IMG/VR virus record: IMGVR_UViG_651053023_000013
Coordinates: 1-13,199 of that record
Source: a virus
Taxonomy: Duplodnaviria > Heunggongvirae > Uroviricota > Caudoviricetes
DNA length: 13,199 nt
Strand: one strand, 5' to 3'
Part shown: piece after piece, positions 1 to 13,199 of the stretch
Numbering within the stretch: position 1 is the first letter of the stretch
How the letters are laid out: each line of letters begins with the position of its first letter
Notes under the pieces: model-generated
What the model saw: the letters and a program-made list of their open reading frames with translations, nothing else
Told to the model about the DNA's origin: nothing
Database searches by the model: none
Program-made: the position numbers and the translations under genes

Positions 1-160
1 AGTTTGCTCCTGCCATAACGTGAAGAAGCAATGACCTGGTGGTCCGTGACTTCCCTACGCTGGCATTATCCAGATCAGGTGATACGGGTATTTCTTACTG
101 ATTTTTGTTATCAGTTGATAATTAATAAGTTTTTCAGCAAACAAGAATTAAAAACTTCAA

Positions 161-184
161 AACTGACCACACAACTGACCACAC
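161..184. repeat. Perfect tandem direct repeat AACTGACCACAC x2 in an A/C-rich non-coding stretch
   Basis: Read directly: aactgaccacac at 161-172 and again at 173-184; no coding context. Confidence 0.6.
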
Positions 185-408
185 ATTTTGTTGAAGCTCT
201 ACGAACAAAGACGAACAATAACAAACAAAAGGGAAATTTGCTGGCAGTTTTGCTTAACCGTTATCATTTTTCGGCTATCCGTTATCAAGCTGGTGGATGA
301 TCACGGATAACCCGTTATGGGAATCCCCATATCGGCATCATGCCCACCAGCATGAAGTATTTTTCGCGGATGTAAAAATTTGACGGGGCGGGCGGTCCCA
401 TAAGCAAT

Positions 409-440
409 GGGGGGGTAGGGATTCCGCTCCCCCCCCTCCC
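409..440. other. G7 ... C8 homopolymer pair able to form a GC-rich stem-loop; T5 run follows about 10 nt downstream
   Basis: ggggggg (409-415) - tagggattccgct - cccccccc (429-436) - tccc, then gaatgcaattttt. Possible plus-strand intrinsic terminator or slippage-prone tract. Confidence 0.35.
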
Positions 441-474
441 GAATGCAATTTTTCTTATATATATACAAAACAGT

Positions 475-627
475 GCGGGTTATGCGGGTTAGCGGGTTAT
501 CTTCGCGTGCTAAGTATTTTTTATTCTTTAATATCAATGCGTTAAAAAATGATATGTTTGAATATTAGCCAAAACGTAACCCGCAAGACATTCAAAATAA
601 CCCGCAAATACCCCCCAAATAACCCAC
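475..627. repeat. Origin-like iteron module A: three abutting GCGGGTTAT copies, AT-rich spacer, three inverted ATAACCC(G/A)C copies at 21-22 bp phasing
   Basis: Direct copies at 475-483, 484-491, 492-500; AT-rich 501-574; inverted copies at 577-584, 597-605, 619-627. Same 9-mer and mirror-image layout as module B at 9640-9771. Confidence 0.6.
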
Positions 628-915
628 AACCCCATCAGGAAAATGGGGCCAGTGATGCCACCGAACGGCTGAATCTGGTAACGTTCTGTTGCCTGGTTGC
701 AGTTTGCGGGTCAGCAATACTGACGCACAAAGTTAGCCGTATGTGGCTGTGCGTCCACCAGCTACGCCGGAATGGGGTATTCCGTTTCAACGGAACAGGT
801 ATGACGAATATGATCGCACCTTCTCCCGAAAACGGGTTTGCCTGTTTCGGGAAAACGGGCACATGAAGCTGCATAGACATTTTCACTATTCAGGATCTGG
901 CGGGGGAGTTTCTCA

Positions 916-1085
916 ATTTCCACCGTTGGTGGAAATTAAACGAATACAGCGAGTTAGGACAAGGTGACTAATGGTCACTCTGTTGCTGCGTCACCATATT
1001 GATGATCCAGCCCTGTAGTCGCGCCACTTTTCCACCAATGGTGGAAAAGCCCACAGCAGGCCGCCCAGCCTCCCCCAATGGGGGA
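916..1085. repeat. Cluster of perfect palindromes sharing CCACC/GGTGG-type half-sites (candidate protein-binding sites)
   Basis: ATTTCCACC-gtt-GGTGGAAAT (916-936); GTGAC-aatg-GTCAC (965-978); CTTTTCCACCA-a-TGGTGGAAAAG (1027-1049); TCCCCCA-a-TGGGGGA (1071-1085). All read directly. Confidence 0.6.
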
Positions 1086-1190
1086 TTGTGGAAGAATCAA
1101 CGGGTTAGGCCTTAATCATCTGCGTAATCATAAGTAATCATAATGTTCATTCATCCAGCGCAATTTTGCGTTATCGGGAATATCAGCAAG

Positions 1191-1475
1191 TTACCGCCGC
1201 AACCGCTCCGGCTTCTTCCAGTGGTAAGTTATTTTTTCCTTCTCCCGGTACATCTCCACGCGGCGACGATATGACAACAACTCCAGAACTCTGATCCGTA
1301 TGTCGCGCATATCCACGCCGTTAAGCTCAATACCGTCACGGCGCATCACCTCAGCCACCACACGCGCGTAATTTTCGGCTATCACGCTGTCCGGCTGCGT
1401 GGCCTCCTGTTTGCCTGCTTCCTGGCTGATTCCGGTAATGCGGCGGATTATTTTTAGTAGTTCGGTTTCGCTCAC
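1191..1475 (-). CDS. Hypothetical small basic protein (94 aa) immediately downstream of the large terminase
   Basis: ORF starts with GTG 5 nt after the terL stop, with only a weak GGGG upstream; basic C-terminus; no recognisable motif. Confidence 0.35.
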   Translation of the reverse strand: MSETELLKIIRRITGISQEAGKQEATQPDSVIAENYARVVAEVMRRDGIELNGVDMRDIRIRVLELLSYRRRVEMYREKEKITYHWKKPERLRR

Positions 1476-1480
1476 TCTCG

Positions 1481-3142
1481 TTATACCCCATCAAACGCCG
1501 CAAGCCGCTCTTTGTGGCTGTCGCTCATATCGAATGCAAATTCCTCATGTTCTGCCTGGAATGTGCCAAACGCCATCAGCGCCGCAACGCTCGGGTCTAT
1601 CTTGTTGGATGATTTTTTCTTGTTCGGCTTGATATTGGCGTTCGCGTCACTCTGCATCACAACATTACTCATTGACCAGGCCAGCACCGGATCGCCACGA
1701 TGCACAATCACCTTCCGGTTAACAAAAACTTCGAACGATTTCGCCGCCGGACTGAAACGAAGGTATGTTTGCGGGAACGGCTCCACCTCAAATCCTGCCC
1801 CCTGTAGCTGCGTCCTCAGGTGCGTGGCGTTCCATGTATCGAAGCCCACCAGCCTGATATTGAAATTCTCTGCATCCGCCATGATGTCATCACGGATACG
1901 GTCATAATCAATGCAGTCACCCGGTGTTGTGCGTATCCAGCCCGCCTTTACCCACTGGCGATAGATGGCGCGGTTTTTATTGGCGGGGTTCTGTAGCTGA
2001 AACTCCGGCAGATAGTGACGGGAAACCAGCATAATCTTTTTACCGACCGGAAAGGCATAGCACACGCTGGAAATATCGCTGGTTGATGATAAGTCCAGCC
2101 CCGCGTAGCACTCCTGCCCGTATAAATCCGCCTCCGCGAACGTTCCGGCGCACTCCGCCCATGCACCGTTACCCATCCACGGCGTGGCCCCCTGACACCA
2201 GATATTGAATCGCTTGGTGAGCATTTCCACCCACTGCGACGGAATACCCCGCGCTTTCTGGATGGTTGAGGCCAGTTTTTCACGATCGACGGAAACATCG
2301 ATATTGGGATTCGCCTTTATCCACATCGCCGGATCGTCAACCTCGCTTTCATCATCCAGCTCGTAAATCAGCACGAACATGGATTCGTTCACCTCTTCAC
2401 CATCCAGTATCTGGCAGCAATAGTCGTAGTGTTGTTTACAGGCTGAAACAACGTTGCTCCCCGATGTGGTGATGGCAAATAATAACCCCTCCGGACGCGC
2501 CCCCATTCCCAGTTCAAGCGCGGAATAAACCCCGTTGTCAGGGTGCAGGTGATATTCATCCACAATGGCAAGACTCGGGTTTGTACCTTCAATGGTTGCC
2601 GCTTTTGCTGCCAGTGGCTTTAACAGGCTGTTGGTTTTCGGGTGTATCACCTTGTGTGCCTGAATATTTACCCGCTTTCGCAACGGTCGGGATAAAAGGC
2701 ACATCTGACGCGCATCATCAAACACGATCCGCGCCTGATCACGACTCACGGCGGCGGTGTAAATATCCTGCTGCCCGTTTTCCATAACCAGAAACCAGTT
2801 AGCCAGGATAGCGGCGACCGTGGATTTGGCATTTTTTCGCGGCACTTCAATGAATGCGCTGGTGTATTTGCGCCGTCCGGTGGCCTTAACCTTAAAGCCC
2901 AGGATGCACGCAAAGGCGAACTGCTGCCACGGCTCCAGCTCAATGGGGCTACCGCGCATTGCGCCTTTTACGTGCGGACACACCCTGGAAAAGGCAATAA
3001 ACCGCTCCACGACCTCCGGATCGAACGTGTAAAGGGGGTTTTCAAGGTCAGAAAAATACCGTTTAACGGCCTGTTTCAGTCGTTTACAGGCCGTAATTTT
3101 GCCGTTTTTTACGCCTTCTGCGTACTCATGCCAGGCGGTCAA
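1481..3142 (-). CDS. terL: Terminase large subunit (HK97-type, Terminase_1-like ATPase/nuclease)
   Basis: 553-aa ORF with a P-loop-like VPRKNAKST and conserved acidic blocks (LAIVDEYH, VLIYELDDESEVDD). Apparent TTG start at 3140-3142, preceded by GAGGA at 5-nt spacing and overlapping the terS stop by 17 nt. Confidence 0.9.
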   Translation of the reverse strand: MTAWHEYAEGVKNGKITACKRLKQAVKRYFSDLENPLYTFDPEVVERFIAFSRVCPHVKGAMRGSPIELEPWQQFAFACILGFKVKATGRRKYTSAFIEVPRKNAKSTVAAILANWFLVMENGQQDIYTAAVSRDQARIVFDDARQMCLLSRPLRKRVNIQAHKVIHPKTNSLLKPLAAKAATIEGTNPSLAIVDEYHLHPDNGVYSALELGMGARPEGLLFAITTSGSNVVSACKQHYDYCCQILDGEEVNESMFVLIYELDDESEVDDPAMWIKANPNIDVSVDREKLASTIQKARGIPSQWVEMLTKRFNIWCQGATPWMGNGAWAECAGTFAEADLYGQECYAGLDLSSTSDISSVCYAFPVGKKIMLVSRHYLPEFQLQNPANKNRAIYRQWVKAGWIRTTPGDCIDYDRIRDDIMADAENFNIRLVGFDTWNATHLRTQLQGAGFEVEPFPQTYLRFSPAAKSFEVFVNRKVIVHRGDPVLAWSMSNVVMQSDANANIKPNKKKSSNKIDPSVAALMAFGTFQAEHEEFAFDMSDSHKERLAAFDGV

Positions 3143-3481
3143 GCTCGTCCTCTTCCTCTGTTTCCGGTGGATTTCTGCGGCGACTTACCGGGTCAAAACC
3201 CAGCAAAGAAGCCATTTTGATCATTATTCTTTCCGCGTCAGCCTTTGCGCTCAGGGCGGGGTTTCTGCTCTCGCTGCCCTGACTGTTAACAATGCTGAAC
3301 CCGCGCGTGGCAAGGTCTTCGACGGCTTTGCGGTATATGGAGTAGTTAACGCAATAAGCTCCAGATTGCTCCAGTCGGCGGGGGTAAGGTCTTCCCGTCC
3401 GGAAAGCTGGCGCGATTTTTCCTTCCACTGCCTGACCGCGATTTCATCCAGGTAAGCGGGGGCTTTTGGTGGTCTTGCCAT
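3126..3481 (-). CDS. terS: Terminase small subunit, P27-like family, split across two reading frames (apparent -1 frameshift near 3345-3365)
   Basis: N-terminal part (ATG at 3479-3481, MARPPKAPAYLDEIAVRQWKE...LTPADWSNLEL) is in one frame and stops at 3251. The family-typical C-terminal part (AYCVNYSIYRKAVEDLATRG...MASLLGFDPVSRRRNPPETEEEDELDRLA) is in the adjacent frame and ends at 3126 overlapping terL. No slippery heptamer at the junction. Confidence 0.6.
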
Positions 3482-3599
3482 GTTCTTTTTTCGCCCAATT
3501 ATTTTCAAAAAAAATCCCGTGCACAAAAATTTGAGGAGGCGGTCGGTGTCCGGCAGGGACGGTTTGTCCTGAAAACCTCCCCCACCCCCTCTGACAGCC

Positions 3600-3785
3600 T
3601 CACCAGCGATTGCGAAAACATTCCATGACCTCGCGGTCACGGTCGGTTAATTGCTTCGCTGTGGTGCGTTCTGTGCGCCCTGTCCTGTTGGCTTTGTGCC
3701 CTGTCTCCTGTGTCTTCCATAAGTCACGCTGCCTTATCAGTCCACGTATCAGCCTGTTTTGCTCCTGTTCAGTCATCATCGCCAT
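3600..3785 (-). CDS. Hypothetical small basic protein (61 aa) between HNH and terS
   Basis: ATG at 3783-3785, 9 nt after the HNH stop; weak ribosome-binding site; no recognisable motif. Confidence 0.3.
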   Translation of the reverse strand: MAMMTEQEQNRLIRGLIRQRDLWKTQETGHKANRTGRTERTTAKQLTDRDREVMECFRNRW

Positions 3786-3796
3786 ACATCCAGTCG

Positions 3797-4210
3797 TTAC
3801 GGTGTGCCGCCCGTTCTTCCTGCTCGCGATACATGACCCGCCTTACGGTTCGCTTTCGTGGCTGGATCTTCCCGTGTCGTCTTACGGTTGTGGCACGTCT
3901 GGCACAATGCCTGGTGATTCCACTCAGGCCAGAAGAGAACATCACCGCCGCCATTGATGGGAATGATGTGATCCACCACAAGAGCTGGCGTATAAATCCC
4001 CTTAGCCAGACAACGCACGCATAACGGGTTTTTGCTCAGGTACAGGGCGCGGTATTTGTCCCACTGTCGGGAATACCCGCGCGCGCGGCGGTGTCCCCGT
4101 CTGGCATCCTCTGCACGCCATGCAGCCCGCCTGTGCTCTTCACACTTTCCGGACTTCACGCGCTTATTACAGCCCGGCTCAGTGCAGCGCCTTAATGGTT
4201 GCCACGGCAT
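3797..4210 (-). CDS. HNH endonuclease (packaging-associated)
   Basis: N-terminal Cys cluster CTEPGCNKRVKSGKCEEH, then HNH core VVDHIIPINGGGD ... WNHQALCQTCHNRKT. ATG at 4208-4210 overlaps the adaptor stop (ATGA). Confidence 0.9.
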   Translation of the reverse strand: MPWQPLRRCTEPGCNKRVKSGKCEEHRRAAWRAEDARRGHRRARGYSRQWDKYRALYLSKNPLCVRCLAKGIYTPALVVDHIIPINGGGDVLFWPEWNHQALCQTCHNRKTTREDPATKANRKAGHVSRAGRTGGTP

Positions 4211-4509
4211 CAGTACACCCCCACATCACGATAAACCGACCAGAGCGCAGAAATAGCCATAGGCAGTTCAGACTGCTCCACAGGTGAAACCGCTTCCCTG
4301 TTCTCGTACAGGAAAGCGATGTACATCAGGCAACCAACACGTATTGCCGGGGTAAATTCCAGCCCGTCTTCAAAACGTTTCCCGATATGCTTCTGGCAGG
4401 CTTCCAGCGCCGCATCGGTATACATTTTCAGAAGTTCGCCTTCTCCGGAAAAGTCATCAAGGCGAAGATGTGCCCTGACTTCATCAGGTGTAATTTTGTC
4501 TTCACTCAT
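4210..4509 (-). CDS. Head-tail adaptor/connector protein (HK97 gp6-like)
   Basis: MSEDKITPDEVRAHLRLDD...AIRVGCLMYIAFLYENRE matches the gp6-like pattern. ATG at 4507-4509 has an AGGTG Shine-Dalgarno and overlaps the portal stop by 8 nt. The tracked ORF start at 4596 is a GTG lying 95 nt inside the portal gene and is rejected. Confidence 0.7.
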   Translation of the reverse strand: MSEDKITPDEVRAHLRLDDFSGEGELLKMYTDAALEACQKHIGKRFEDGLEFTPAIRVGCLMYIAFLYENREAVSPVEQSELPMAISALWSVYRDVGVY

Positions 4510-5716
4510 CTTTTTCACCTTTAATTTCCACAGTCTGCTTCCATGCCTGGCTGAACTCGTCGCCACCTTCACGCGGCGGCATTCCCTCACGCTCACGGGC
4601 TTCGTTCGGATTCATGATCCCGTTCTTAATCCCTTTCTCATACGTGGCGTAACGTTCAGTAGGTGTGGCGCGCAGTAAATCGGCTGAATCAAACTCAACC
4701 AGATAACGGGTACCAGGTACGGGAGAAGCCACCAGCAAAGCGGCCTTGATTTGCTGTTCGAAGTTCGCCAGCCACGGACGCATTGTCATAGTCAGAAACG
4801 CGCGGCTTGCCTCACTGAAATTGCTGTAGGTGCTGTTGCTGTATTCCTGCAGAAAAATCGGCGACACGTTGAACATCCGGGCGATGTCTTCAATGGAGAA
4901 GCGACGGGAGGCCAGCCATTCCGCATCCTGGTTACTCATCCCCAGTTGCTTGTAATCCATGCCCCCTTCAAGGATTGGCGTTTTTCCGGCATTTTTCGCC
5001 CCCTTGTAGCGTTCCAGTGCGTCTAATGCCTGTTTACCTTTCACGCCGTCCAGCCATTCGCCTGACGTGATAATCCCTGCCGCCATCATGCCATCTTTCA
5101 TAATGCTGGCTCCGTGACGCTGTTGAGCAAGGCCAAGCCCCAGCGCCTCACGGCAAATCGTGATGGGGGAGCGTCCCAGAAAGCCATCATCCGAGGCATA
5201 GCGGAGATGCAGAACTTCTTCCTGTAAATACGTGCGCACCGTTCCTGTACAGGGTTCGGTGATGGTATAGCGGTATTTGTGTGCGCCTGTGCGTTCCGGT
5301 ACAACACACCCCGGCGCATAAGGATGAAGTGATTTTGGCTGACCGTCCCGCCCCCATTCAATAACCGCATAGGCGTTACCGTTCAGCAGGCAGTGACGCA
5401 TCATTGTGCGTTTAAACTGGTAAGGTGTCTGGCACGAATTAGGCTGCTCATTCAGCAGAATATCTACCGGATGACTGTCCAGCCATTCCCGCGCCTCCCT
5501 GCCCTTGTCATTACGTACCAGATACAGATAACACGGCATCGTGGCCACCGCCTCAGCGATGACGGAAACCGCGTTCATCACTGCGGGCAATGATTCAGCC
5601 GTCCCGGCAGAAACATATTCTCCGGATCCGGTATTCGGTACGCCGGACAGCACCAGAAAATCATCAATGGACAGGTTACGTTGCTCGCTTTTTTTACGAC
5701 TAAAAGGCCACCACAT
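4502..5716 (-). CDS. Portal protein (HK97 family)
   Basis: About 405 aa from ATG at 5714-5716 (MWWPFSRKK...), which follows the protease stop by one base (TGA-T-ATG). The longer tracked ORF begins at a TTG inside the protease gene. Confidence 0.85.
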   Translation of the reverse strand: MWWPFSRKKSEQRNLSIDDFLVLSGVPNTGSGEYVSAGTAESLPAVMNAVSVIAEAVATMPCYLYLVRNDKGREAREWLDSHPVDILLNEQPNSCQTPYQFKRTMMRHCLLNGNAYAVIEWGRDGQPKSLHPYAPGCVVPERTGAHKYRYTITEPCTGTVRTYLQEEVLHLRYASDDGFLGRSPITICREALGLGLAQQRHGASIMKDGMMAAGIITSGEWLDGVKGKQALDALERYKGAKNAGKTPILEGGMDYKQLGMSNQDAEWLASRRFSIEDIARMFNVSPIFLQEYSNSTYSNFSEASRAFLTMTMRPWLANFEQQIKAALLVASPVPGTRYLVEFDSADLLRATPTERYATYEKGIKNGIMNPNEAREREGMPPREGGDEFSQAWKQTVEIKGEKDE

Positions 5717-5717
5717 A

Positions 5718-6278
5718 TCACAACCCCGCCAGCTCTGCCCAGCGATGACGATTATTTCCTGCCGGGCGTAATTCAGGGTGCTGTGCAAACAACGAACGGT
5801 GGGCAATCTCCACGCCAGATTCGGGATAAGCAGGCATCGACGTGATCGTGATTTCCCTGAGTTCTGCAGCGGTAACAGTACGCAGATACGGTTTTTGCGC
5901 GATATTCCACTCTTCGCATAATGCGCGAAAGCCAAAGCTCATCCCTGTAATGTCGCCACGCTCCACCAGCGTAAGCACATCTTTTCCAAGCTGGGTATCA
6001 GGCGGTGTCAGTTCAAAACGTAGCCCGGTGTTGTCCTCAGTCAGTACCAGAGTGCCGGATTTGGTGCGCCCCAGCAGTTGGGTATAGTCATGCTCATACA
6101 GGCAGCGCACATCATTACCCGCCGCCAGATAGTCAGCAAAAGCCCCCGGCGTGAACTGTTCGCGGAATTCGTCCCAGATAATTTCTGAAAGGCTGTTCCA
6201 GCGAACGGCATACCCCACCAGCTTTTTATTGCTGGCGGTCAGTTCAGATGTGCGGATTTCAAAATCGGTGTTTTTCAT
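5718..6278 (-). CDS. Prohead maturation protease (HK97 family, S78/U35-like)
   Basis: 186 aa, placed between capsid and portal; typical HK97 protease length and sequence character. ATG at 6276-6278. Confidence 0.85.
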   Translation of the reverse strand: MKNTDFEIRTSELTASNKKLVGYAVRWNSLSEIIWDEFREQFTPGAFADYLAAGNDVRCLYEHDYTQLLGRTKSGTLVLTEDNTGLRFELTPPDTQLGKDVLTLVERGDITGMSFGFRALCEEWNIAQKPYLRTVTAAELREITITSMPAYPESGVEIAHRSLFAQHPELRPAGNNRHRWAELAGL

Positions 6279-6332
6279 CGGTGTACTCCATAAAGCTGAA
6301 AAAGGAGGCCGCAGCCTCCTCCTTACTCATGA

Positions 6333-7502
6333 CTAGCCAGCTTTCATTTCCAGAATTTTGATGGCGTTTGAATCCACCACACCACCGCCCAGATATTTAT
6401 CCGTGTGGACCTTGTAGAATCCGGGTTCAGTAATGTTGTCCGGTCGGGTGCGAATCCCTGTTACATGATCAACGATGAAATAACCACGACTGAAATCGCC
6501 AACCGCTAGCGGTGCTTTTCCTGCGCCGATGTCCGGCATGGACTCCAGGCAGAAAACAGGACGACCAAGCAACATATCCGGCGCACCTTCTTTAAGGCTG
6601 TCGCGCCAGATATAATCGCCATTCTCATTTTTCAGCTTCTGTAGTGTCCCTGCCGTGCCCGAGTTCATCACCCAGACGGCATTTTTGCGGTATTTCGCTT
6701 TCAGCTTGTAGAGAATGTCGATCAGTTCGTCCGCTGTAATGGCGGTTCCACTTGCCGCTACCACTTTTTCAATGGTGCCAAAAGCGCGGGTTTTGTCACT
6801 GGTCGCCGCACGGGTGTAAGCCATGAAGCCTTTCGGCTTGCCGTTACCGTCGCCATTAACAAAATCATCCTCTTCGGTGCTGGCGAACGTGTCGGCAATT
6901 TCGGAGGATAACCAGCCCAAAATATCCACCTCTGAAAAATCCAGGATTTCCTGCGTGGTTTTCGGGTAGGCGTAGATCTGATTCAGCTTGATGGTTACAC
7001 GTTCAATTTTCGGGGTGTTGGTTTCACTACGTGCGCTGCCTTCTGTGCCTCGTCCTACAGTTGCGCCGCCAGTGGAAACCAGTTTCTGAAACTCATTTGA
7101 TTTTGCGGTCTTCACGGTCGCGATCACGCGCATAACACTGTCATCCTGTAGCTGGCGCATGACTTCGCGATCAAGCTCAGGAATTACGGTATATCCGCCA
7201 TCCCTGCCGCTGTCAGTGCTGGTGGACAGTGATCGCACATCTCCGGTTACGATGTAGTTACGCAATTCATCAGATGATAATTTCTGGATGCCCGTTCCTG
7301 GCTTGCTGCGTTCTTCATCAGCCACAGACTCGAGGCGGTAAATTTCTGTGTCGAGGGAATCGGCTTTTGCACGCAGTTCATCAAACTGTTTGCCCTCGTC
7401 ATCGTTCAGGCTGCGGTTTTCACTGTCGGCTTTTTCCAGCAGGGATCGCATCTGGTTTTTCAGGGCGGTTTTTTGCTGGCGGAGTTCGATTAATTTCTTC
7501 AT
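6333..7502 (-). CDS. Major capsid protein (HK97 fold) with N-terminal coiled-coil delta/scaffold domain
   Basis: 389 aa; N-terminal heptad-rich region (MKKLIELRQQKTALKNQMRSLLEKADSENRSL...) followed by an HK97-type capsid body. ATG at 7500-7502. Confidence 0.9.
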   Translation of the reverse strand: MKKLIELRQQKTALKNQMRSLLEKADSENRSLNDDEGKQFDELRAKADSLDTEIYRLESVADEERSKPGTGIQKLSSDELRNYIVTGDVRSLSTSTDSGRDGGYTVIPELDREVMRQLQDDSVMRVIATVKTAKSNEFQKLVSTGGATVGRGTEGSARSETNTPKIERVTIKLNQIYAYPKTTQEILDFSEVDILGWLSSEIADTFASTEEDDFVNGDGNGKPKGFMAYTRAATSDKTRAFGTIEKVVAASGTAITADELIDILYKLKAKYRKNAVWVMNSGTAGTLQKLKNENGDYIWRDSLKEGAPDMLLGRPVFCLESMPDIGAGKAPLAVGDFSRGYFIVDHVTGIRTRPDNITEPGFYKVHTDKYLGGGVVDSNAIKILEMKAG

Positions 7503-7572
7503 GAAGGTTTTCTCGTATTGGTTAAGATTCAGGACGTGAAACCAACACGGAGGGAGCGCCGCCCGACACTCT

Positions 7573-7621
7573 CGGCATCTCGCAGATCAACCCGGCATCG
7601 CGCAGGGGGTCAGGCGGCATT
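7573..7621. promoter_or_regulatory. Three direct CGGCAT(C) repeats at 20-22 bp phasing upstream of the capsid operon (candidate activator sites for a late promoter)
   Basis: cggcatctcgcag (7573-7585), cggcatcgcgcag (7593-7605), cggcatt (7615-7621), in a GC-rich block 70-120 bp upstream of the capsid ATG. No good sigma70 -35/-10 lies between the block and the ATG. Confidence 0.35.
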
Positions 7622-7726
7622 GTGGCGGCTCACGTCTGAGTGCCACACGCCAACATATACATAAAAATCAGTATGTAAACATCAGCCAGAATCACCGAAC
7701 AACCTGGAACAACCACGAACAAATAA

Positions 7727-7757
7727 TTTACAAAACCTGAAAAAAATGGCCTATTAT
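7727..7757 (+). promoter_or_regulatory. Putative sigma70 promoter of the AT-rich accessory gene
   Basis: TTTACA (7727-7732), 19-bp spacer, TATTAT (7752-7757); AGGA ribosome-binding site 6 nt before the ATG at 7789. Spacer is longer than optimal. Confidence 0.3.
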
Positions 7758-7788
7758 TGCTACCTCTGACTACAACAAAGGACGCATC

Positions 7789-8295
7789 ATGAATTTAAGC
7801 GCAATGGTATACCCTGATACTTTCATAATTAATGGCGAATCATTTAAAGGTAAAAGAAACGCAAAAGAAAACAAGGTATTAATTCCATATACAAATGAAC
7901 CGGAAGTAACTATTGGTCAACACATTATCCAGTGTGTCGGTAAAAACGAGATAAATCTAAAAATTATAGATATGAAGTTGCTTCCCAATGGAACCCTCAG
8001 ACAGGGAACCAACCATCCAAATATGTTGACGCTCTATATTGAAAATATCACGGGAAATGAACATATGACGCCACCTAAAAGTAATACATTTAACATTGGT
8101 TCAATTAGTGGTAATCAAGTGCAGATAGGTGAGCATAACCATATGCTGGTAAACATCAGCATCACTGAACTGGTTGAAAAAGTCTCTAAATCGGGGGATG
8201 TACAAGCCAAATCAGTATTAAAGCAGTTACTGGAAAACAGTACCGTTGCCAGCATTGTTGGGGCTGGCGCAAGTGCCTTAATAGGCTTACTGTAA
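7789..8295 (+). CDS. Unrecognised 168-aa protein with C-terminal hydrophobic glycine-zipper segment; AT-rich accessory gene (moron)
   Basis: Only credible plus-strand gene inside the island. Roughly one-third GC by eye against about half in neighbouring genes. Own promoter, ribosome-binding site and terminator. C-terminal ...NSTVASIVGAGASALIGLL is a likely membrane anchor. Internal NIGSISGNQVQIGEHNH is not assignable from memory. Confidence 0.7.
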   Translation: MNLSAMVYPDTFIINGESFKGKRNAKENKVLIPYTNEPEVTIGQHIIQCVGKNEINLKIIDMKLLPNGTLRQGTNHPNMLTLYIENITGNEHMTPPKSNTFNIGSISGNQVQIGEHNHMLVNISITELVEKVSKSGDVQAKSVLKQLLENSTVASIVGAGASALIGLL

Positions 8296-8303
8296 AAAAA
8301 TGA

Positions 8304-8320
8304 CCTGGAGAAAATCCAGG
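8304..8320. terminator. Bidirectional intrinsic terminator between convergent genes
   Basis: Stem CCTGGA (8304-8309), loop gaaaa, stem TCCAGG (8315-8320). On the minus strand it is followed by T7 (complement of A7 at 8294-8300); on the plus strand by an interrupted T-rich run. Confidence 0.5.
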
Positions 8321-8331
8321 CCTTTATCGCT

Positions 8332-8580
8332 TTATTGTTTCACTGGATCCCGCATTCTGCGTCTTATTTTCCACAGATATTCGATCATCGCTTCCACCTG
8401 CTCACGATTGGTTGCGAAAATTTCCCCGGTCAGTGAGCTGCGCAGAAAATCATGATGATCCACAACAAACAACGCATCGGAAGAAAGCAGACGGCGATAT
8501 TTTTTTGCTGTCGTGGTTTCCAGATCATCAAAACCATGAAACTTTTTATGTTGCTGGACTTCTTCAAATGTCACTGGCAT
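8332..8580 (-). CDS. Hypothetical protein (82 aa), translationally coupled to the ProQ/FinO-like gene
   Basis: ATG at 8578-8580 overlaps the stop of the upstream ORF by 10 nt; no recognisable motif. Confidence 0.45.
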   Translation of the reverse strand: MPVTFEEVQQHKKFHGFDDLETTTAKKYRRLLSSDALFVVDHHDFLRSSLTGEIFATNREQVEAMIEYLWKIRRRMRDPVKQ

Positions 8581-9113
8581 GTATCCCCCTTTGCTGCCCG
8601 GCGCTGGCGCTTGTGCTTCTCATTCAGCGCCATCAGCCGCGTTTCTGCCTCCTGCTGTTCCTGTGGTGTCACTTCCCCACATGGCTGGCCTTTCAGGTCG
8701 TATCGTACCCCACCAGCAACCAGGGCGCGGTAATAGCGCGGAGACTGCGCATAAGATGCCAGCGTCGCACGTAATGCCCCCGGCCCGAATGCCAGCCCCC
8801 TGACGGCGAGATCCTGCATCAGGTCGTCGAATATCCCCACCTTAAGCGGCTTCGGTGCTTCCCTGTTGAATAAGTCAGGCCACATCTCAGTGAGGCGGTT
8901 AACGCGCCTGCGGTTTTTGCGCTGGCGTTTGGTCATATGCCGCCACGGTGTCACCCCTGTGGGCTGCCCTTTGCGGCTCTGCTGTGCGTTCTGATTGCCG
9001 GGTATCACTTTATGCGCCGATGTGGTTTTATCCCGCTCTTGCGCCGCCTGCGTCGTTTTCTGCGGCGTGCCGTAAATGCCTTTCGGTTTTCGGTTAATGG
9101 TCAGCTTTGTCAT
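8571..9113 (-). CDS. ProQ/FinO-domain RNA-binding protein with an N-terminal basic, Q-rich extension of about 75 aa
   Basis: PLKVGIFDDLMQDL...LRATLASYAQSPRYYRALVAGGVRYDLKGQPCGEVTPQEQQEAETRL aligns by eye to the N-terminal FinO domain of E. coli ProQ (PLKIGIFQDL...LRSALRLYTSSWRYLYGV...[24 protein letters not shown]). ATG at 9111-9113 with a GGGGAAGG ribosome-binding site. Confidence 0.75.
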   Translation of the reverse strand: MTKLTINRKPKGIYGTPQKTTQAAQERDKTTSAHKVIPGNQNAQQSRKGQPTGVTPWRHMTKRQRKNRRRVNRLTEMWPDLFNREAPKPLKVGIFDDLMQDLAVRGLAFGPGALRATLASYAQSPRYYRALVAGGVRYDLKGQPCGEVTPQEQQEAETRLMALNEKHKRQRRAAKGDTCQ

Positions 9114-9149
9114 GCCTTCCCCTGTAATTACTCTGTTCGCTGTTGTGAA

Positions 9150-9575
9150 TTAAAACGGTATGTTATCCCCGTACAGGTCATCGTGCTGGCCTGTCTGTTG
9201 TTTTGCCCTGTTCAGTGCGTCAGTGGCCTGCCCCTGTTGGCCTTTTTTGCCGCCCGGTCGCGCCGTTCTCGCACTGATTACGCTGTCTGCGATGACCTGC
9301 CAGCCCTGCCGCGTTTCGCCGTTCTGCCCTGTCCACTGGCTTACCTGCATGTTACCCGCCACGTTCACCAGTTCGCCTTTGCGGTGTTTTGCCAGTGCGT
9401 CGGCCTGTCTGCCAAACGCCAGGACGGATAACCACATCGTCGCCGTTCCGTCATCTGCCTGGCTGCATGGCAGGGGAACCGCCATACTCGCCATCGCCAT
9501 TTGTGTTCCCTTGCTGGTGGTCTTTAACTGCGGGTCAGCCACCAGCCGCCCGTAAGCCGCTATCTGTGCTGTCAT
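9150..9575 (-). CDS. ssb: Single-stranded DNA-binding protein (short, divergent SSB)
   Basis: 141 aa; OB-fold-like N-terminal pattern (GRLVADPQL ... WLSVLAFGRQADALAKHRKGELVNVAGNMQVSQWTGQNGETRQGWQVIADSV), Gly/Gln-rich linker and acidic tail ending DDLYGDNIPF (compare DDDIPF in E. coli SSB). Confidence 0.75.
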   Translation of the reverse strand: MTAQIAAYGRLVADPQLKTTSKGTQMAMASMAVPLPCSQADDGTATMWLSVLAFGRQADALAKHRKGELVNVAGNMQVSQWTGQNGETRQGWQVIADSVISARTARPGGKKGQQGQATDALNRAKQQTGQHDDLYGDNIPF

Positions 9576-9639
9576 GCTGTCTGCTCTCCGGTTTTAACGT
9601 TGATGGTTACGCTTGTTTACACCCTTACGGTGAAATTCT

Positions 9640-9771
9640 GCGGGTTATAATCGCACTTTTGCGGGTTATAACTGCCGTTTTGCGGGTTACGTGCGGGTTA
9701 TTGATTTCCTTTTTATTCATACAGTTAATGCACTTATATACATGATAACCCGCATAACCCGCATAACCCGC
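9640..9771. repeat. Origin-like iteron module B: four GCGGGTTA(T/C) copies at 21/21/11 bp phasing, AT-rich spacer, three abutting ATAACCCGC copies; immediately downstream of the primase-helicase gene
   Basis: Direct copies at 9640-9648, 9661-9669, 9682-9690, 9693-9701; AT-rich 9702-9744; inverted copies at 9745-9753, 9754-9762, 9763-9771. The primase stop is at 9795-9797. Confidence 0.7.
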
Positions 9772-9794
9772 AACTTTTCACCTCACACAGGGGG

Positions 9795-11918
9795 TTAATC
9801 TTCTGCCTCAGGCTGGAACATCAGCACGTAAAAAACATGCTGCTTCCCCCCAATTTTGCCGAGCGCCTTTTTCTTGTAACGGCGATCGTTACCCGCTTCC
9901 AGCATTCCGGCAGCACTCAACGCGCGGGCAAAGTGAGACGGATTAAATCCCTGTGCTATCTCACCCTCAAATACATGCGGGAACGTGTAAAAACGGAACT
10001 CGTCATCTTCGTTTCTGATACTCCCCTTTCTGTATCCGGCAAGCTCTTTAATCGGTAAATCACGCTCGTCGGTGTTGGGCCACGGAAGGTATCTGCTGAA
10101 TCCGAACGACGCTAAAAAAGCCTCTGCCTGTTCAACCATCTGTTTAAACTCCCTGTTACCCGTGCCGAACTCCTTCACCCAGGCATTAAAATTATGCTGA
10201 ATGGCATCGCGGCACGCCTGAACATCCCAACCAGTAATATGGACGGAAAGCACCAGCGCCGACTCCAGCATGGCGAATCGTTCCCCCACACGGTGAACCT
10301 GTTCGCCGTAACTCTCCGGTATCAGGTTGCGCCACCGTTCACGGCATGCCCTTACCGTATCCTTTGCCTCCTGCTGGTGGTCTGCCAGCCATTTAACCCA
10401 TTCACGCCCCGCCGCCCCGTGATTTTCTGTCCAGGCATCCTTTAACGCGTCTGCGTGTGCCTTTCCGGTGCTGTATTCGTGAAACTGCGTGGCTTTTTCC
10501 ATTGGCACGTTAAGCAGGCGGACAAGCTGCCCCGCCTTGACTTTTATCCCCTCCGTTTTGAGGAATGTCTCAACGTCCATTTCTCCGGTGCTGATTGCCA
10601 CCGTGCGCCAGTGTTTGATCTCCCTGTTGCCGCCGTCCTTCGCCCCCTGTAATTTCCCCGAACCGTTAAACAGCGTATAAGCCGACGTGGACACTTCCCG
10701 CGCGTTTCCGGCCTGACCTATTTCATCCAGGGGTAATAGCCCGTCATTGTGCGCCTCTGCCTCGTTGGCGATGCCTAACGCTGTACCGTACCAGGTCAGC
10801 CGTTGCGCGTCCGGCTCTCCCCATAAACTGGATGCGATGTTCTGTGTGGTGGTTTTCCCTGCCGATGACTGTTCGAAAAGATGTACCCCGAAGCCGTCAG
10901 CACCCACCAGCCCGATTAATGGTGCGGATAACGATACCGCCACACCCAGCATCATGGACGGATTACCACCAGCCAGCCGCGCAACGATATCGCGCCAGCC
11001 CTCCGCCGTTCCTGCCACGGAATAGCCATTAACAGCAGCCGTTTTTCCGGTAAACAGGACTGGCTTTTCGCAATCACCAATGACCGAACCGTCCGGCATG
11101 ATGTACGCGCCAAAATGCCAGCCCGTTGTTGTGCTTAACTGCCATTCCTCATGGCTTCCGCTTAACTGCATCCAGTCAGCCAGGATAGCCCTGTATTTAC
11201 CGTTGGTTGTTACGTTCAGTCCGTGGTCTTTCAGCAACCGCCAGCCGTCACGGTCGCCAATGCCACCGCACGGAACCGCCATTGTGATGACTTCATGGTT
11301 TGCTAATTTTTTCCAGCGCATCACGCGGTAATGCTCTTTACCGATTGTCCCCGTTCCCAGTAGTTCAAGCGGGGAACATAACCACGTCTCAGGCCGGATA
11401 ATTTCGCCTGACTGCTTATCCACTTTTGGCGTTACCCAGAAAACACCATCGGCGCGACTTTCAACGCGGGGCTTTAATTCATCATCGCCCTGGATTTCTG
11501 TGATTTTTTTCTTTAAGGGCAACACCAGACTTTCCCCGCGCTCGTATTCGTCTTTGAGGCGAGGCAACTGGTCGGATAAATCCGCCGGGCTGATGTCAGT
11601 TATCCCCGCGTATTCGTATACGGTCTTCACGCCAGCCACAGCCAGCAACGTGACGATCTGTGTAAGGCTACGTTCAGTGATGTGCCCTGCGCGGTAAACA
11701 CGCACACACTGACGGCTATCATCAATAATTTGATAACCGGTAATATCTTTCAGGTGTTCATCTGACAGAACGACAGGCGGCACATTGTCGGCGGCAATAT
11801 GCTTACCTGCCCATTCCTGCCACTCTTTCGCATGGCTCCACGCATCACTACCCGCAAAGATGATAACCTCCGTCATTTTGTCGGCTGGCTGGTGCTTTAA
11901 GTTTGGTGCGCGCTTCAT
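9795..11918 (-). CDS. Replication initiator: Toprim-like primase N-terminus plus DUF927/SF3-type helicase-like domain
   Basis: 707 aa; P-loop FEQSSAGKTTTQNIASSLWG and Walker B-like LLPLDEIGQAG; N-terminal region resembles a Toprim primase fold. ATG at 11916-11918 overlaps the upstream stop (ATGA). The iteron module follows directly. Confidence 0.8.
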   Translation of the reverse strand: MKRAPNLKHQPADKMTEVIIFAGSDAWSHAKEWQEWAGKHIAADNVPPVVLSDEHLKDITGYQIIDDSRQCVRVYRAGHITERSLTQIVTLLAVAGVKTVYEYAGITDISPADLSDQLPRLKDEYERGESLVLPLKKKITEIQGDDELKPRVESRADGVFWVTPKVDKQSGEIIRPETWLCSPLELLGTGTIGKEHYRVMRWKKLANHEVITMAVPCGGIGDRDGWRLLKDHGLNVTTNGKYRAILADWMQLSGSHEEWQLSTTTGWHFGAYIMPDGSVIGDCEKPVLFTGKTAAVNGYSVAGTAEGWRDIVARLAGGNPSMMLGVAVSLSAPLIGLVGADGFGVHLFEQSSAGKTTTQNIASSLWGEPDAQRLTWYGTALGIANEAEAHNDGLLPLDEIGQAGNAREVSTSAYTLFNGSGKLQGAKDGGNREIKHWRTVAISTGEMDVETFLKTEGIKVKAGQLVRLLNVPMEKATQFHEYSTGKAHADALKDAWTENHGAAGREWVKWLADHQQEAKDTVRACRERWRNLIPESYGEQVHRVGERFAMLESALVLSVHITGWDVQACRDAIQHNFNAWVKEFGTGNREFKQMVEQAEAFLASFGFSRYLPWPNTDERDLPIKELAGYRKGSIRNEDDEFRFYTFPHVFEGEIAQGFNPSHFARALSAAGMLEAGNDRRYKKKALGKIGGKQHVFYVLMFQPEAED

Positions 11919-12229
11919 TTTGCCTTTCCCCGTTCACGAATAATTTCACGTACTGCCTTAATGCGTTCCATTCCTGTAACGCGCATGATTCTGTCGATGT
12001 CGCTTAATTCTGCTGGTGGTGCTTTACTTACCAAGGTGAACTCCCTGTCAAAGCGCATATGTGACGACACGCAGGGATGCGCATAACCTTCGCGGATATA
12101 GGTCACACGAAAATCATCGACGGTTTTGATCGTTATCGTGCTGCCGTATTTATCCTGGAAAATATCGCCGGGGCGGATTTCAGGCCGAGCGGGGCCGCTG
12201 GCAGTAAAGCCAGAATTTTTCTTTTTCAT
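11915..12229 (-). CDS. Hypothetical protein (104 aa), translationally coupled to the primase-helicase
   Basis: ATG at 12227-12229 with GGAG at 8-nt spacing; stop overlaps the primase start; no recognisable motif. Confidence 0.5.
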   Translation of the reverse strand: MKKKNSGFTASGPARPEIRPGDIFQDKYGSTITIKTVDDFRVTYIREGYAHPCVSSHMRFDREFTLVSKAPPAELSDIDRIMRVTGMERIKAVREIIRERGKAK

Positions 12230-12234
12230 GTTTT

Positions 12235-12453
12235 TTACTCCAGAGGCAGCTTTTTAGCGGCGAGCTCAATATCAGATGTCAGAGAAACCTGTGTATTTGC
12301 CAGGTCTAACAACAAAGAAATAAGAATTTCTTCTCTGCTATCGGATTTATCGGTGCTAAGGCTGTTCATCCACATATTGACGACTTCCCTGATTTTTTTC
12401 GCAGAGTGCAGGGCTTCAAATGCCAGGTCTTCAATATCATGTTTATTTCGCAT
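12235..12453 (-). CDS. Hypothetical small protein (about 72 aa)
   Basis: Preferred ATG at 12451-12453 (MRNKHDIEDL...) with a GGGGG ribosome-binding site, overlapping the upstream stop by 11 nt. The tracked ORF start at 12483 is TTG. Confidence 0.4.
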   Translation of the reverse strand: MRNKHDIEDLAFEALHSAKKIREVVNMWMNSLSTDKSDSREEILISLLLDLANTQVSLTSDIELAAKKLPLE

Positions 12454-12805
12454 AATCGCCCCCGCCATTTTCACAATCAGCAATCAGGATGGCTTTTGCC
12501 TCATTCAGCGCCATATCAGCACTAAATTGCATAACAGCCAGTGAGTGAGGAACGAAAGCCCCGGCATATTCTGTTTCGCTGGTGGCCTCAATGGTAATCA
12601 CACGCGGTTGTGCCGTGCTCAGGGCGATAAAACGCCAGATGTATTTATTCAGGTTGTGCAAGTCCCGCCCTTGCGGGTGTGTGGTATGATTTAACATAGC
12701 TACCTCGATAATCTTGCTATCGTTGGTGGTTAGAAGCCCGGTTAGTGTTAGCGCACTGCCGGGTTTCGTCGTTTGTATTTCAATAAAACCATTGGTGTGT
12801 TTCAT
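12443..12805 (-). CDS. Hypothetical protein, first gene of the replication-side operon (120 aa from ATG 12805; alternative start 12697 gives 84 aa)
   Basis: ATG at 12803-12805 sits inside an operator-like inverted repeat and has no Shine-Dalgarno. An internal ATG at 12695-12697 has a GAGGT ribosome-binding site. The tracked extension to 13186 is Ser/Thr-rich and antisense to the plus-strand regulator. Confidence 0.45.
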   Translation of the reverse strand: MKHTNGFIEIQTTKPGSALTLTGLLTTNDSKIIEVAMLNHTTHPQGRDLHNLNKYIWRFIALSTAQPRVITIEATSETEYAGAFVPHSLAVMQFSADMALNEAKAILIADCENGGGDYAK

Positions 12806-12875
12806 GTTATTTTGGAGTGAAACACACGTCAAGCCTTTTTTGTATTTCTTTTTTGTGTATACTGAAACACACCAA
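12792..12875. promoter_or_regulatory. Divergent control region with three copies of TGAAACACAC (one inverted, two direct) and a -10-like TATACT
   Basis: GTGTGTTTCA (12795-12804, overlapping the minus-strand ATG), TGAAACACAC (12818-12827) and TGAAACACACCAA (12863-12875). The first and third share 13 bp in opposite orientation. TATACT at 12858-12863. Confidence 0.5.
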
Positions 12876-12893
12876 ATTTGAGGAGTTTCAGTT

Positions 12894-13199
12894 ATGGCGA
12901 CTACCAACAAAAACGCTAAATCACAATTGACCACCGTCAGAGTCCCCCACGATGTTATGGAGGGCATGGAATCCGTAAAACTGGACGGCGAAAGCAACGC
13001 CGGATTCATAGTAACCGCCATGCGCGGTGAGATCGCCCGCCGCCAGGCAGAAGGAAGCGGAGAAAATCCCCTGGTTTCTTCGCTCGATGCACTGGCGCAG
13101 GTGGAAAAAATTGGAGTCAAGGCTGCCGAGGAGATCGGGCAACTCGTCGCCGTCGCGCGTGAAGAACTCCAGCGCCGCAAGGCCAAAGAATCAGAATAA
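12894..13199 (+). CDS. Putative ribbon-helix-helix-type DNA-binding regulator (101 aa), divergent from the replication operon
   Basis: Strong ribosome-binding site GAGGAG (12880-12885), 8 nt before the ATG. N-terminus LTTVRVPHDVMEGMESVKL...NAGFIVTAMRGEIARRQ fits a beta-strand/helix/helix pattern; helical C-terminal extension. Fold assignment is by pattern only. Confidence 0.45.
   Translation: MATTNKNAKSQLTTVRVPHDVMEGMESVKLDGESNAGFIVTAMRGEIARRQAEGSGENPLVSSLDALAQVEKIGVKAAEEIGQLVAVAREELQRRKAKESE

Follow-up and report, generated by a model that had tools for sequence, protein, structure and literature searches.

The closest described kind of regulatory region to the one treated here is the ribbon-helix-helix (RHH)-type autoregulated repressor–operator switch, and its nearest example is the immI region of phage P22 (Mnt/Arc, Pant/Pmnt, sar). 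In P22 the gene of a small RHH-type repressor is divergent from the operon that it controls, the operators overlap the −10/+1 regions of both promoters, and there is a further, translational level of control through a small antisense RNA. The DNA analyzed here is a stretch of 13,199 nucleotides, positions 1 to 13,199 of the IMG/VR virus record IMGVR_UViG_651053023_000013 (Caudoviricetes; "the window" below), which, judged from its gene content, is a capsid-forming phage satellite of E. coli of the phage-inducible chromosomal island (PICI) type. Our subject is its control region (12792–12893), which lies between an Icd-like/DUF4222/DUF927-primase operon on the minus strand and a gene of the YlcI/YnfO family, ylcI, on the plus strand; a preliminary description had correctly recognized a divergent region between the replication operon and the plus-strand gene.

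For Gram-negative PICIs the global repressor is unclear, and the activator AlpA is required for induction and is sufficient in EcCICFT073 (Fillol-Salom et al. 2018; PMC6092414); the YlcI module is not mentioned in that paper. Neither a YlcI protein nor operators of the present kind appear in the preprint on capsid-forming PICIs (cf-PICIs) or in the paper on helper-embedded PICIs, which cover the int/alpA, Bro, replication, and late zones as well as immunity RNAs. Our search of the literature on YlcI/YnfO function, or on an RHH repressor in PICIs, found nothing relevant, and we found no paper describing the module, which is carried by the prototype EcCICFT073.

We put at roughly 70% the probability that the short repeats in this region are operator half-sites (TG-N4-ACAC(C)) for the island's own YlcI-family protein. 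Their placement at −7 to +6 of both promoters and in the spacer of the minus-strand one, the conservation of their positions, and a site sequence that changes together with the N-terminal strand of YlcI strongly support an autoregulated YlcI repressor–operator switch, which is the reading that the preliminary description had proposed; the further step, from a switch to control of island induction, is one that we infer. YlcI is on this evidence the most likely binder of the sites and a candidate for the repressor sought in Gram-negative PICIs.

Promoters and putative operator sites

The features of the control region and of the two genes that it separates are as follows.

12443–12697, minus strand: Icd-like first gene of the operon, 84 aa, ATG at 12697; here an in-frame deletion fusion with the next gene
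12792–12804, minus strand: O1, 13-bp site TTGGTGTGTTTCA (minus-strand reading TGAAACACACCAA); spans P_icd, the operon promoter, from about −7 to +6
12804–12809, minus strand: P_icd −10 hexamer TAACAT, containing the ATG earlier taken as the start codon
12818–12827, plus strand: O2, 10-bp site TGAAACACAC, in the P_icd spacer at −30 to −21
12827–12832, minus strand: P_icd −35 hexamer TTGACG (TTGACG, TTGACA or TTGACC in most loci)
12840–12849, minus strand: O4, degenerate site TTGTATTTCT, 7/10 to GTGTGTTTCA; inverted relative to O3
12858–12863, plus strand: ylcI −10 hexamer TATACT, with a T-rich stretch upstream
12863–12875, plus strand: O3, 13-bp site TGAAACACACCAA; about −7 to +6 of the ylcI promoter
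12894–13199, plus strand: ylcI, 101 aa, YlcI/YnfO family; proposed operator-binding repressor

Perfect copies of the 10-mer number exactly three in the window; allowing one mismatch adds a single unrelated match (chance would give about 0.95 matches with at most one mismatch over the full window). The repeats are not due to chance, because the three exact copies sit within 81 bp and none lies elsewhere. These are the three sites of the preliminary description, each exactly where it had placed them: the 10-bp copy stands between the two 13-bp copies, and the direct copy overlaps the −10-like TATACT of the plus-strand gene, with which it shares T12863. That description had, however, overlooked the fourth, degenerate site, O4. 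O2 is inverted relative to O1 with 13 bp between them, and O4 mirrors O2 on the ylcI promoter, at a position (−54) where other types of the region have a good site (for example, ATGTAAGACT vs. TGTCTTACAC and TTGTGATTCT vs. TGAATCACAT). The control region is built of two mirror-image promoter–operator units, O1 and O2 bracketing the −10 of P_icd and O4 and O3 that of ylcI, and the centers of the four sites are 23, 22, and 23 bp apart.

P_icd (TTGACG-17-TAACAT, 12832..12804, minus strand) is near consensus and is the sole σ70-like promoter found in 12400–13199. With a YlcI alignment as query we obtained ~180 related loci from genomes, metagenomes, and viral contigs, 95 of them distinct (designated here by L numbers), and among 94 distinct related loci P_icd has an equivalent in 89 and TAnnnT stands at the position of the ylcI −10 in 92.

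The inverted copy had been described as overlapping the start codon of the first minus-strand gene. The copy at 12792–12804 is exact, and it does share bases with a minus-strand ATG (12805..12803) whose frame is that of the Icd-like open reading frame (ORF), but this ATG lies inside the −10 hexamer and is not conserved: in many related loci it is absent, is out of frame through a 1-nt indel, or is followed by an in-frame stop. We therefore reject it as the functional start, and the site overlaps the −10/+1 region of the promoter instead. An ATG ~181–209 nt from the ylcI ATG and preceded by GAGG or GGAG is present in all related loci compared. Because this Shine–Dalgarno (SD)-proximal ATG is always kept, the first gene most likely starts at its counterpart here, ATG 12697, which has a GAGG SD 5 nt upstream (12706..12703) and most likely a leader of ~100 nt ahead of it. 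In L001, an E. coli record 99% identical to the window, the PGAP start is the counterpart of ATG 12805, and the RefSeq Icd-like coding sequence (L001 6279–6593, WP_000683307.1) begins there; the annotation of L002 uses the SD-proximal ATG, and the long PGAP/RefSeq form in L001 was probably extended too far. No stop interrupts the minus-strand frame across the intergenic region or opposite ylcI (ORF 12443–13186, 247 aa).

The arms of the O1/O2 inverted repeat are perfectly complementary over 10 bp and would enclose a 13-nt loop, so that the repeat might act as an RNA hairpin, a terminator or attenuator, in crossing transcripts. We give this idea next to no credence and reject it: O1 and O2 are direct repeats, which cannot pair, in several types (L008, L015, EcCICFT073). 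A hairpin would also leave O3 and O4 unexplained, and since transcription from P_icd is predicted to start near 12797, O2 would not be part of its transcript.

Some further repeats are seen around the array. Weak site look-alikes flank it, TTGTATTTCA at 12773–12782 (in the U-tract of the antisense RNA described below) and AGGAGTTTCA at 12881–12890 (over the ylcI SD); TTTGTATTTC forms an exact 10-nt direct repeat (12772–12781 and 12839–12848); and 12861–12892 is an imperfect palindrome whose outer pair C-G becomes A-T in Xenorhabdus.

Co-variation of sites and YlcI

In ~90 distinct loci of differing specificity type, from Escherichia, Xenorhabdus, Photorhabdus, Enterobacter, Yersinia, Serratia, and others, the four sites stand where they do here, at −99, −76, −54, and −31 relative to the ylcI ATG. 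The site sequence differs by locus (TGAAACACAC, TGATATACAC, TGTCTTACAC, TGAATCACA, TGAAATACAC, TGTTGCACAC, GGTGTGTATTTA, and others) within the shared frame TG-N4-ACAC(C), and each change of site is paired with a change in YlcI residues 12–15 (and 17). We compared pairs of distinct loci across 14 strand types. Where the YlcI C-termini were at least 85% identical and the strands different, none of 1420 pairs had the O3 site in common; where the strand was the same and the C-termini were <60% identical, all of them did (35/35). The site sequence thus does not track the C-terminal domain, nor does it follow the replicase, AlpA, or Icd. Even deeply diverged loci keep the pairing, namely those of Xenorhabdus and Photorhabdus and L101, whose YlcI is of a different C-terminal class. 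The capsid and decoration genes c1499 and c1500 allowed us to locate EcCICFT073 in NC_004431.1; the module recurs in this island, where ylcI and an Icd-like gene are again divergent, the sites are GGTGTGGCCCAC twice and TGTCCCCCACCAA, and the YlcI strand is KSQALKARV.

In recombinant islands the sites and the strand are exchanged together.

12764–12943, no strand assigned: exchangeable specificity cassette of the operators and ylcI codons 1–17, boundaries to the nearest 30-nt bin

In sliding comparisons with L172, L166, L056, and L074, identity falls to 45–75% only within ~12764–12943, and the flanks are 86–100% identical. Since the cassette ends at the putative DNA-reading strand and the pairing survives deep divergence, a functional link between YlcI and the operators is favored.

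Another regulator might bind the sites and YlcI merely be its neighbor; the island's AlpA, the second helix-turn-helix (HTH) protein, the BRO-N protein, the Icd-like protein, or a protein of the helper phage could each be proposed. AlpA is a known activator of Gram-negative PICIs (PMC6092414), the Icd-like family is labeled "transcriptional repressor" in PHROGs (phrog_6196, E 8e-27), and adjacency could account for part of the co-variation of YlcI with its operators. We nevertheless think this improbable. L002 has the operators of the window with an AlpA that is only 48% identical and a different, RepA-type replicase; conversely, L172 has different operators with BRO, hyp82, and DUF4222 proteins that are 93–98% identical; Icd-like types combine freely with operator types; and the swapped cassette stops just after the YlcI strand. 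The first three observations lead us to reject AlpA, the Icd-like protein, and the BRO protein as determinants of site specificity. A host or helper factor cannot explain at least 14 island-specific site types, and a host factor is excluded on that ground.

The same loci bear on whether the repeats are replication-origin iterons bound by the DUF927 primase-helicase. They are short and stand beside a replication operon, and PICI origins are made of iterons, although those origins lie downstream of rep (PMC6092414) and the present sites lie upstream of the operon. In L002 identical sites accompany a RepA-family helicase in place of DUF927, the sites co-varying with YlcI and not with the replicase. 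On the evidence of position and of L002 we reject the iterons, which we regard as very improbable.

The YlcI protein

The N-terminal 42-residue domain of YlcI (residues 9–50) matches NCBIfam NF041551 with 68.5 bits against a cut-off of 30, and the full-length protein matches PHROG phrog_6522 (E 2.6e-62); a tblastn search of 50,697 phage records with YlcI gave no match. The preliminary description had called the plus-strand gene RHH-like. In support of this, YlcI has the order strand-helix-turn-helix with a G-x-S/T/N turn (G32-E33-S34), and residues 12–15 and 17 vary around an invariant R16 and P18, this R-x-P standing at the end of the strand; hhalign sets R16-P18 of YlcI on R13-P15 of Arc. 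In profile comparisons with known RHH families the fold is not statistically secure, while the pattern stands. An RHH fold of the N-terminal domain is, on the model and the pattern together, likely though not established, and the repressor–operator conclusion is independent of it.

Several results weigh against an RHH fold or against YlcI as the repressor. The AlphaFold2 (AF2) monomer (mean predicted confidence, pLDDT, 78) has residues 7–18 extended, helices at 19–28 and 35–54, and a long helix at 59–100, and the putative strand (~11–17) is not formed. Comparison with P22 Arc by hhalign gives E 0.0014–0.0044 at a probability of only 8–17%, and with Mnt E 0.058; for Pfam PSK_trans_fac the score is 16.6 bits where the cut-off is 28.3 (E 0.016), and 17 of 22 homologs also give a match to it that is below threshold. 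Profile searches of the Protein Data Bank (PDB) with full-length and N-terminal YlcI alignments returned no RHH protein, and a Foldseek search of the PDB found no match. The ylcI promoter has no recognizable −35, and tetrameric RHH operators typically have a spacing of ~11 bp, narrower than the 22–23 bp seen here. In some islands (EcCICFT073, L188 35474–35653; also L017–L022) YlcI is a protein of ~59 aa that consists of the N-domain and an RRKAKEQE tail without residues ~52–93; since their protein is without the C-terminal helix, that helix must be dispensable in those islands. Because AlpA alone triggers excision and replication of EcCICFT073 (PMC6092414), repression by YlcI would have to be weak or bypassable. 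Finally, as the operators and codons 1–17 adjoin, hitch-hiking may give part of the co-variation.

The unusual spacing, which a simple RHH operator would not lead one to expect, could also mean that YlcI binds the repeats chiefly in another capacity than as repressor of the replication operon, either as a centromere-like or packaging-site factor in the manner of ParG and omega or as an activator. RHH proteins on short-repeat arrays include partition and plasmid-maintenance proteins, and ylcI of E. coli K-12 directly adjoins the cos/nohD region of DLP12. The K-12 protein is, however, only 22% identical to that of the window, and no partner nucleoside triphosphatase or terminase gene is adjacent here. 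Moreover, all four sites stand at set distances from the −10 and −35 boxes of the two promoters, and with their mirror symmetry this is the geometry of promoter occlusion. A main role of either kind, accessory factor or activator, seems to us quite unlikely.

In the C-terminal part of YlcI, residues 60–88 (window 13070–13160) include a conserved segment, LVSSLDALAQVEKIGVKAAEEIGQLV, that resembles a helix-hairpin-helix (HhH) motif. A PDB profile search matches this part to the HhH domain of Hef (1x2i, E 0.014), and in the AF2 model it is one continuous helix.

An antisense RNA over the icd leader

A small RNA is predicted opposite the leader of the Icd-like gene.

12697–12778, plus strand: SymR-like cis-antisense RNA, ~80 nt, of two hairpins, the second an intrinsic terminator with a U-tract

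Its promoter has an extended −10, TGGTATGAT (12682–12690, plus strand), and the RNA is complementary to the SD (12706..12703), the start codon (12697..12695), and most of the ~100-nt icd leader, and SymR, too, lies in cis across the SD and start codon of the gene that it opposes. The structure of the predicted RNA is conserved, with strong support from covariation. The fold has a z-score of −6.0; compensatory changes occur in 14 of the 22 base pairs; and 96.7% of the alignment cells are paired, compared with 37–45% in slid controls. None of 500 shuffles reached the observed values. The plus strand is preferred to the minus (96.7% vs. 81.6% paired), a difference that comes from 86 G-U cells.

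The Rfam SymR model (RF01809) scores 33.6 bits in the window, L001, and L056, against a gathering score of 61. Because this is below the threshold we call the RNA SymR-like and reject membership of the SymR family as Rfam defines it. A covariance model that we built from 26 loci (R1) matches every non-training locus tested with at least 62 bits (69.6 bits in EcCICFT073), and it matches the genuine K-12 symR weakly, at almost exactly the annotated coordinates (28.3 bits, E ~1e-3). The C4 and a1b1 models (RF01695, RF03163) gave no match at E up to 1 in 11800–13199 or up to 0.1 in the whole window, and isrK gave none in the window; the C4 RNA family was therefore rejected for this RNA. Two other loci, L082 (204–408, minus strand) and L096 (42–246, minus strand), have a genuine C4 (69–73 bits) with a1b1 target elements downstream in the same operon, which by sequence is an immunity RNA of the P1 immI/P4 CI type besides the YlcI module. 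In the metagenomic locus L062 a second copy of the antisense-RNA motif (3173–3254, plus strand, 70.6 bits) lies ~370 bp downstream of ylcI and may mark a tandem or neighboring island.

A model for the switch

We propose that YlcI dimers insert an N-terminal β-ribbon into the major groove, with residues 12–15 recognizing the central N4 and R16, itself invariant, recognizing the invariant GTG/ACAC part, and that dimers on neighboring sites might cooperate through the C-terminal helix. Once YlcI fills O1 and O2, P_icd would be closed to RNA polymerase and the replication and late genes of the satellite would be silenced, and O3 with the weak O4 would give negative autoregulation of ylcI. The ~80-nt antisense RNA, made constitutively, would pair with leaky icd mRNA over the leader and ribosome-binding site and block its translation. 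Induction would require that YlcI be inactivated or bypassed, and here we can only speculate. One route would be AlpA-dependent transcription from the int-alpA side, running antisense through ylcI into the operon, an entry suggested by the known requirement for AlpA in induction; the other would be an antirepressor, expressed for example from the Bro zone.

A wider scheme may be offered tentatively, as one that we hold possible rather than probable. YlcI-family proteins would be the master repressors of Gram-negative PICIs, both the EcCICFT073-type and the capsid-forming islands; at least 14 cassettes of strand and operators would define immunity or incompatibility groups among co-resident satellites; AlpA-driven transcription or an antirepressor would override them; and the SymR-related RNA would be a second lock, on the Icd-like first gene.

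With the YlcI–operator module the question of a repressor in Gram-negative PICIs can be put directly to the test. Should YlcI prove to be that repressor, an uncharacterized protein family would gain a function, and the circuit that regulates a widespread class of phage satellites would be open to experiment. The table of TG-N4-ACAC sites against residues 12–15 would then amount to a recognition code and provide orthogonal repressor–operator pairs for engineering.

The operon and the satellite genome

The operon read from P_icd begins with the Icd-like gene, DUF4222, and the DUF927 primase-helicase; beyond these, without a change of strand, come the genes for the single-stranded DNA-binding protein (SSB) and ProQ/FinO and the capsid and packaging genes. 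Relative to L001, ~172–187 bp are missing from the window (window 12571–12586; L001 6188–6359), and as a result of this deletion the first 41 Icd-like codons run on, without a frameshift, into the 3′ portion of the next gene, with the junction at a repeated ...ATSE(Q/T)E... motif.

The minus strand of the window encodes, by Pfam matches, the large terminase subunit (TerL), an HNH protein, connector, portal, prohead protease, and major capsid protein, and also ProQ/FinO, SSB, the DUF927 primase-helicase, DUF4222, a small hypothetical protein, and the Icd-like protein. The capsid, protease, portal, connector, HNH, and TerL genes that a cf-PICI is expected to carry are all in the window; no tail or lysis gene is found among the window ORFs. 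The int and alpA genes expected at one end of such an island lie outside the window and are seen in L001, where BRO-N, two HTH genes (one of them AlpA-like), and the integrase follow ylcI, all on the minus strand. Since its neighbors on both sides, in the window and in L001, are on the minus strand, ylcI is a lone opposite-strand unit in an otherwise co-directional element.

Just beyond the window, a conserved ORF of 57–58 aa (L001 7046–7222, plus strand; L188 35243–35416, minus strand) encodes a very basic protein (..RKRRRKNI..ERFAPCSFALEKFLKE..). It lies 3′ of ylcI on the same strand, before two terminator-like hairpins, and is probably co-transcribed with ylcI. Farther on in L001 (10176–12977), which is the closest E. 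coli relative, the island integrase lies directly against a truncated prophage terL, after which come terS, HNH, endolysin, and holin genes, and this looks, from the gene order, like a helper-embedded PICI configuration (compare PMC10111431).

Sequences related to an 800-bp region with the module occur in 1444 of 5426 complete E. coli genomes, about a quarter. A megablast search with the 131-bp operator region found 2 genomes only and is unusable as an estimate of prevalence, the conserved blocks being shorter than the 28-nt word.

At the left end of the window, in the first 1.5 kb (1–1480, especially 35–126, minus strand), part of the sequence matches nearly all E. coli genomes and is therefore probably chromosomal flank or an att junction. 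A thiamine pyrophosphate (TPP)-riboswitch match at this end is below threshold (31.7 vs. 54.3 bits), and no tRNA gene was found anywhere in the window. A 168-aa ORF (7789–8295, plus strand) lies between the capsid and ProQ/FinO genes on the opposite strand and may be an accessory or cargo gene; it matches no Pfam or PADLOC family, and PADLOC found no defense system among the regulators or accessory ORFs.

Comparison with known systems

The layout of P22 immI given at the outset recurs here, with a divergent small protein of apparent RHH type whose binding is predicted, sites over −10/+1 of both promoters, and a small antisense RNA. Mnt also has, as YlcI appears to have, an RHH domain followed by a C-terminal helical oligomerization region. 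The proteins themselves differ, Mnt and Arc having no significant sequence similarity to YlcI (hhalign E 0.0014–0.058). In P22 each repressor has one operator of 17–21 bp, whereas the present region has four sites 22–23 bp apart. The P22 operon encodes the antirepressor Ant, and in its place stand Icd-like, hypothetical, DUF4222, DUF927 primase-helicase, SSB, and ProQ/FinO genes. Unlike that of P22, the antisense RNA here covers the ribosome-binding site of the first gene.

P1/P7 immI (c4-icd-ant) and the CI RNA of P4 are similar in that an Icd-family first gene is checked, as is proposed here, by a small immunity-type RNA at its leader and ribosome-binding site. The region departs from P1/P7 in that the window has no C4 or isrK match, the RNA is cis-encoded on the opposite strand, and a protein repressor–operator layer appears to have been added. 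SymE/SymR of E. coli K-12 shares a 77–82-nt two-hairpin RNA that arises inside the 5′ end of the opposite gene and covers its SD and start codon; apart from the score below the gathering score, the differences are that the target is Icd-like and not SymE and that the setting is a satellite control region.

Stl (Rpr) of the Staphylococcus aureus pathogenicity islands (SaPIs) and other Gram-positive PICIs occupies the same place in a phage satellite as YlcI, with the same logic, as a divergent regulator between the int side and the replication/packaging operon (stl-str). The Stl proteins are, however, HTH repressors without similarity to YlcI, and de-repression by helper-phage proteins has been shown for them.

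CopG, omega, and ParG are small dimeric β-ribbon proteins that bind several short repeats overlapping their own promoters and regulate themselves negatively, as is proposed for YlcI. Their repeats are contiguous and of 7–8 bp, whereas the sites of the YlcI module are of 10–13 bp, recur every 22–23 bp, and are arranged symmetrically on two promoters.

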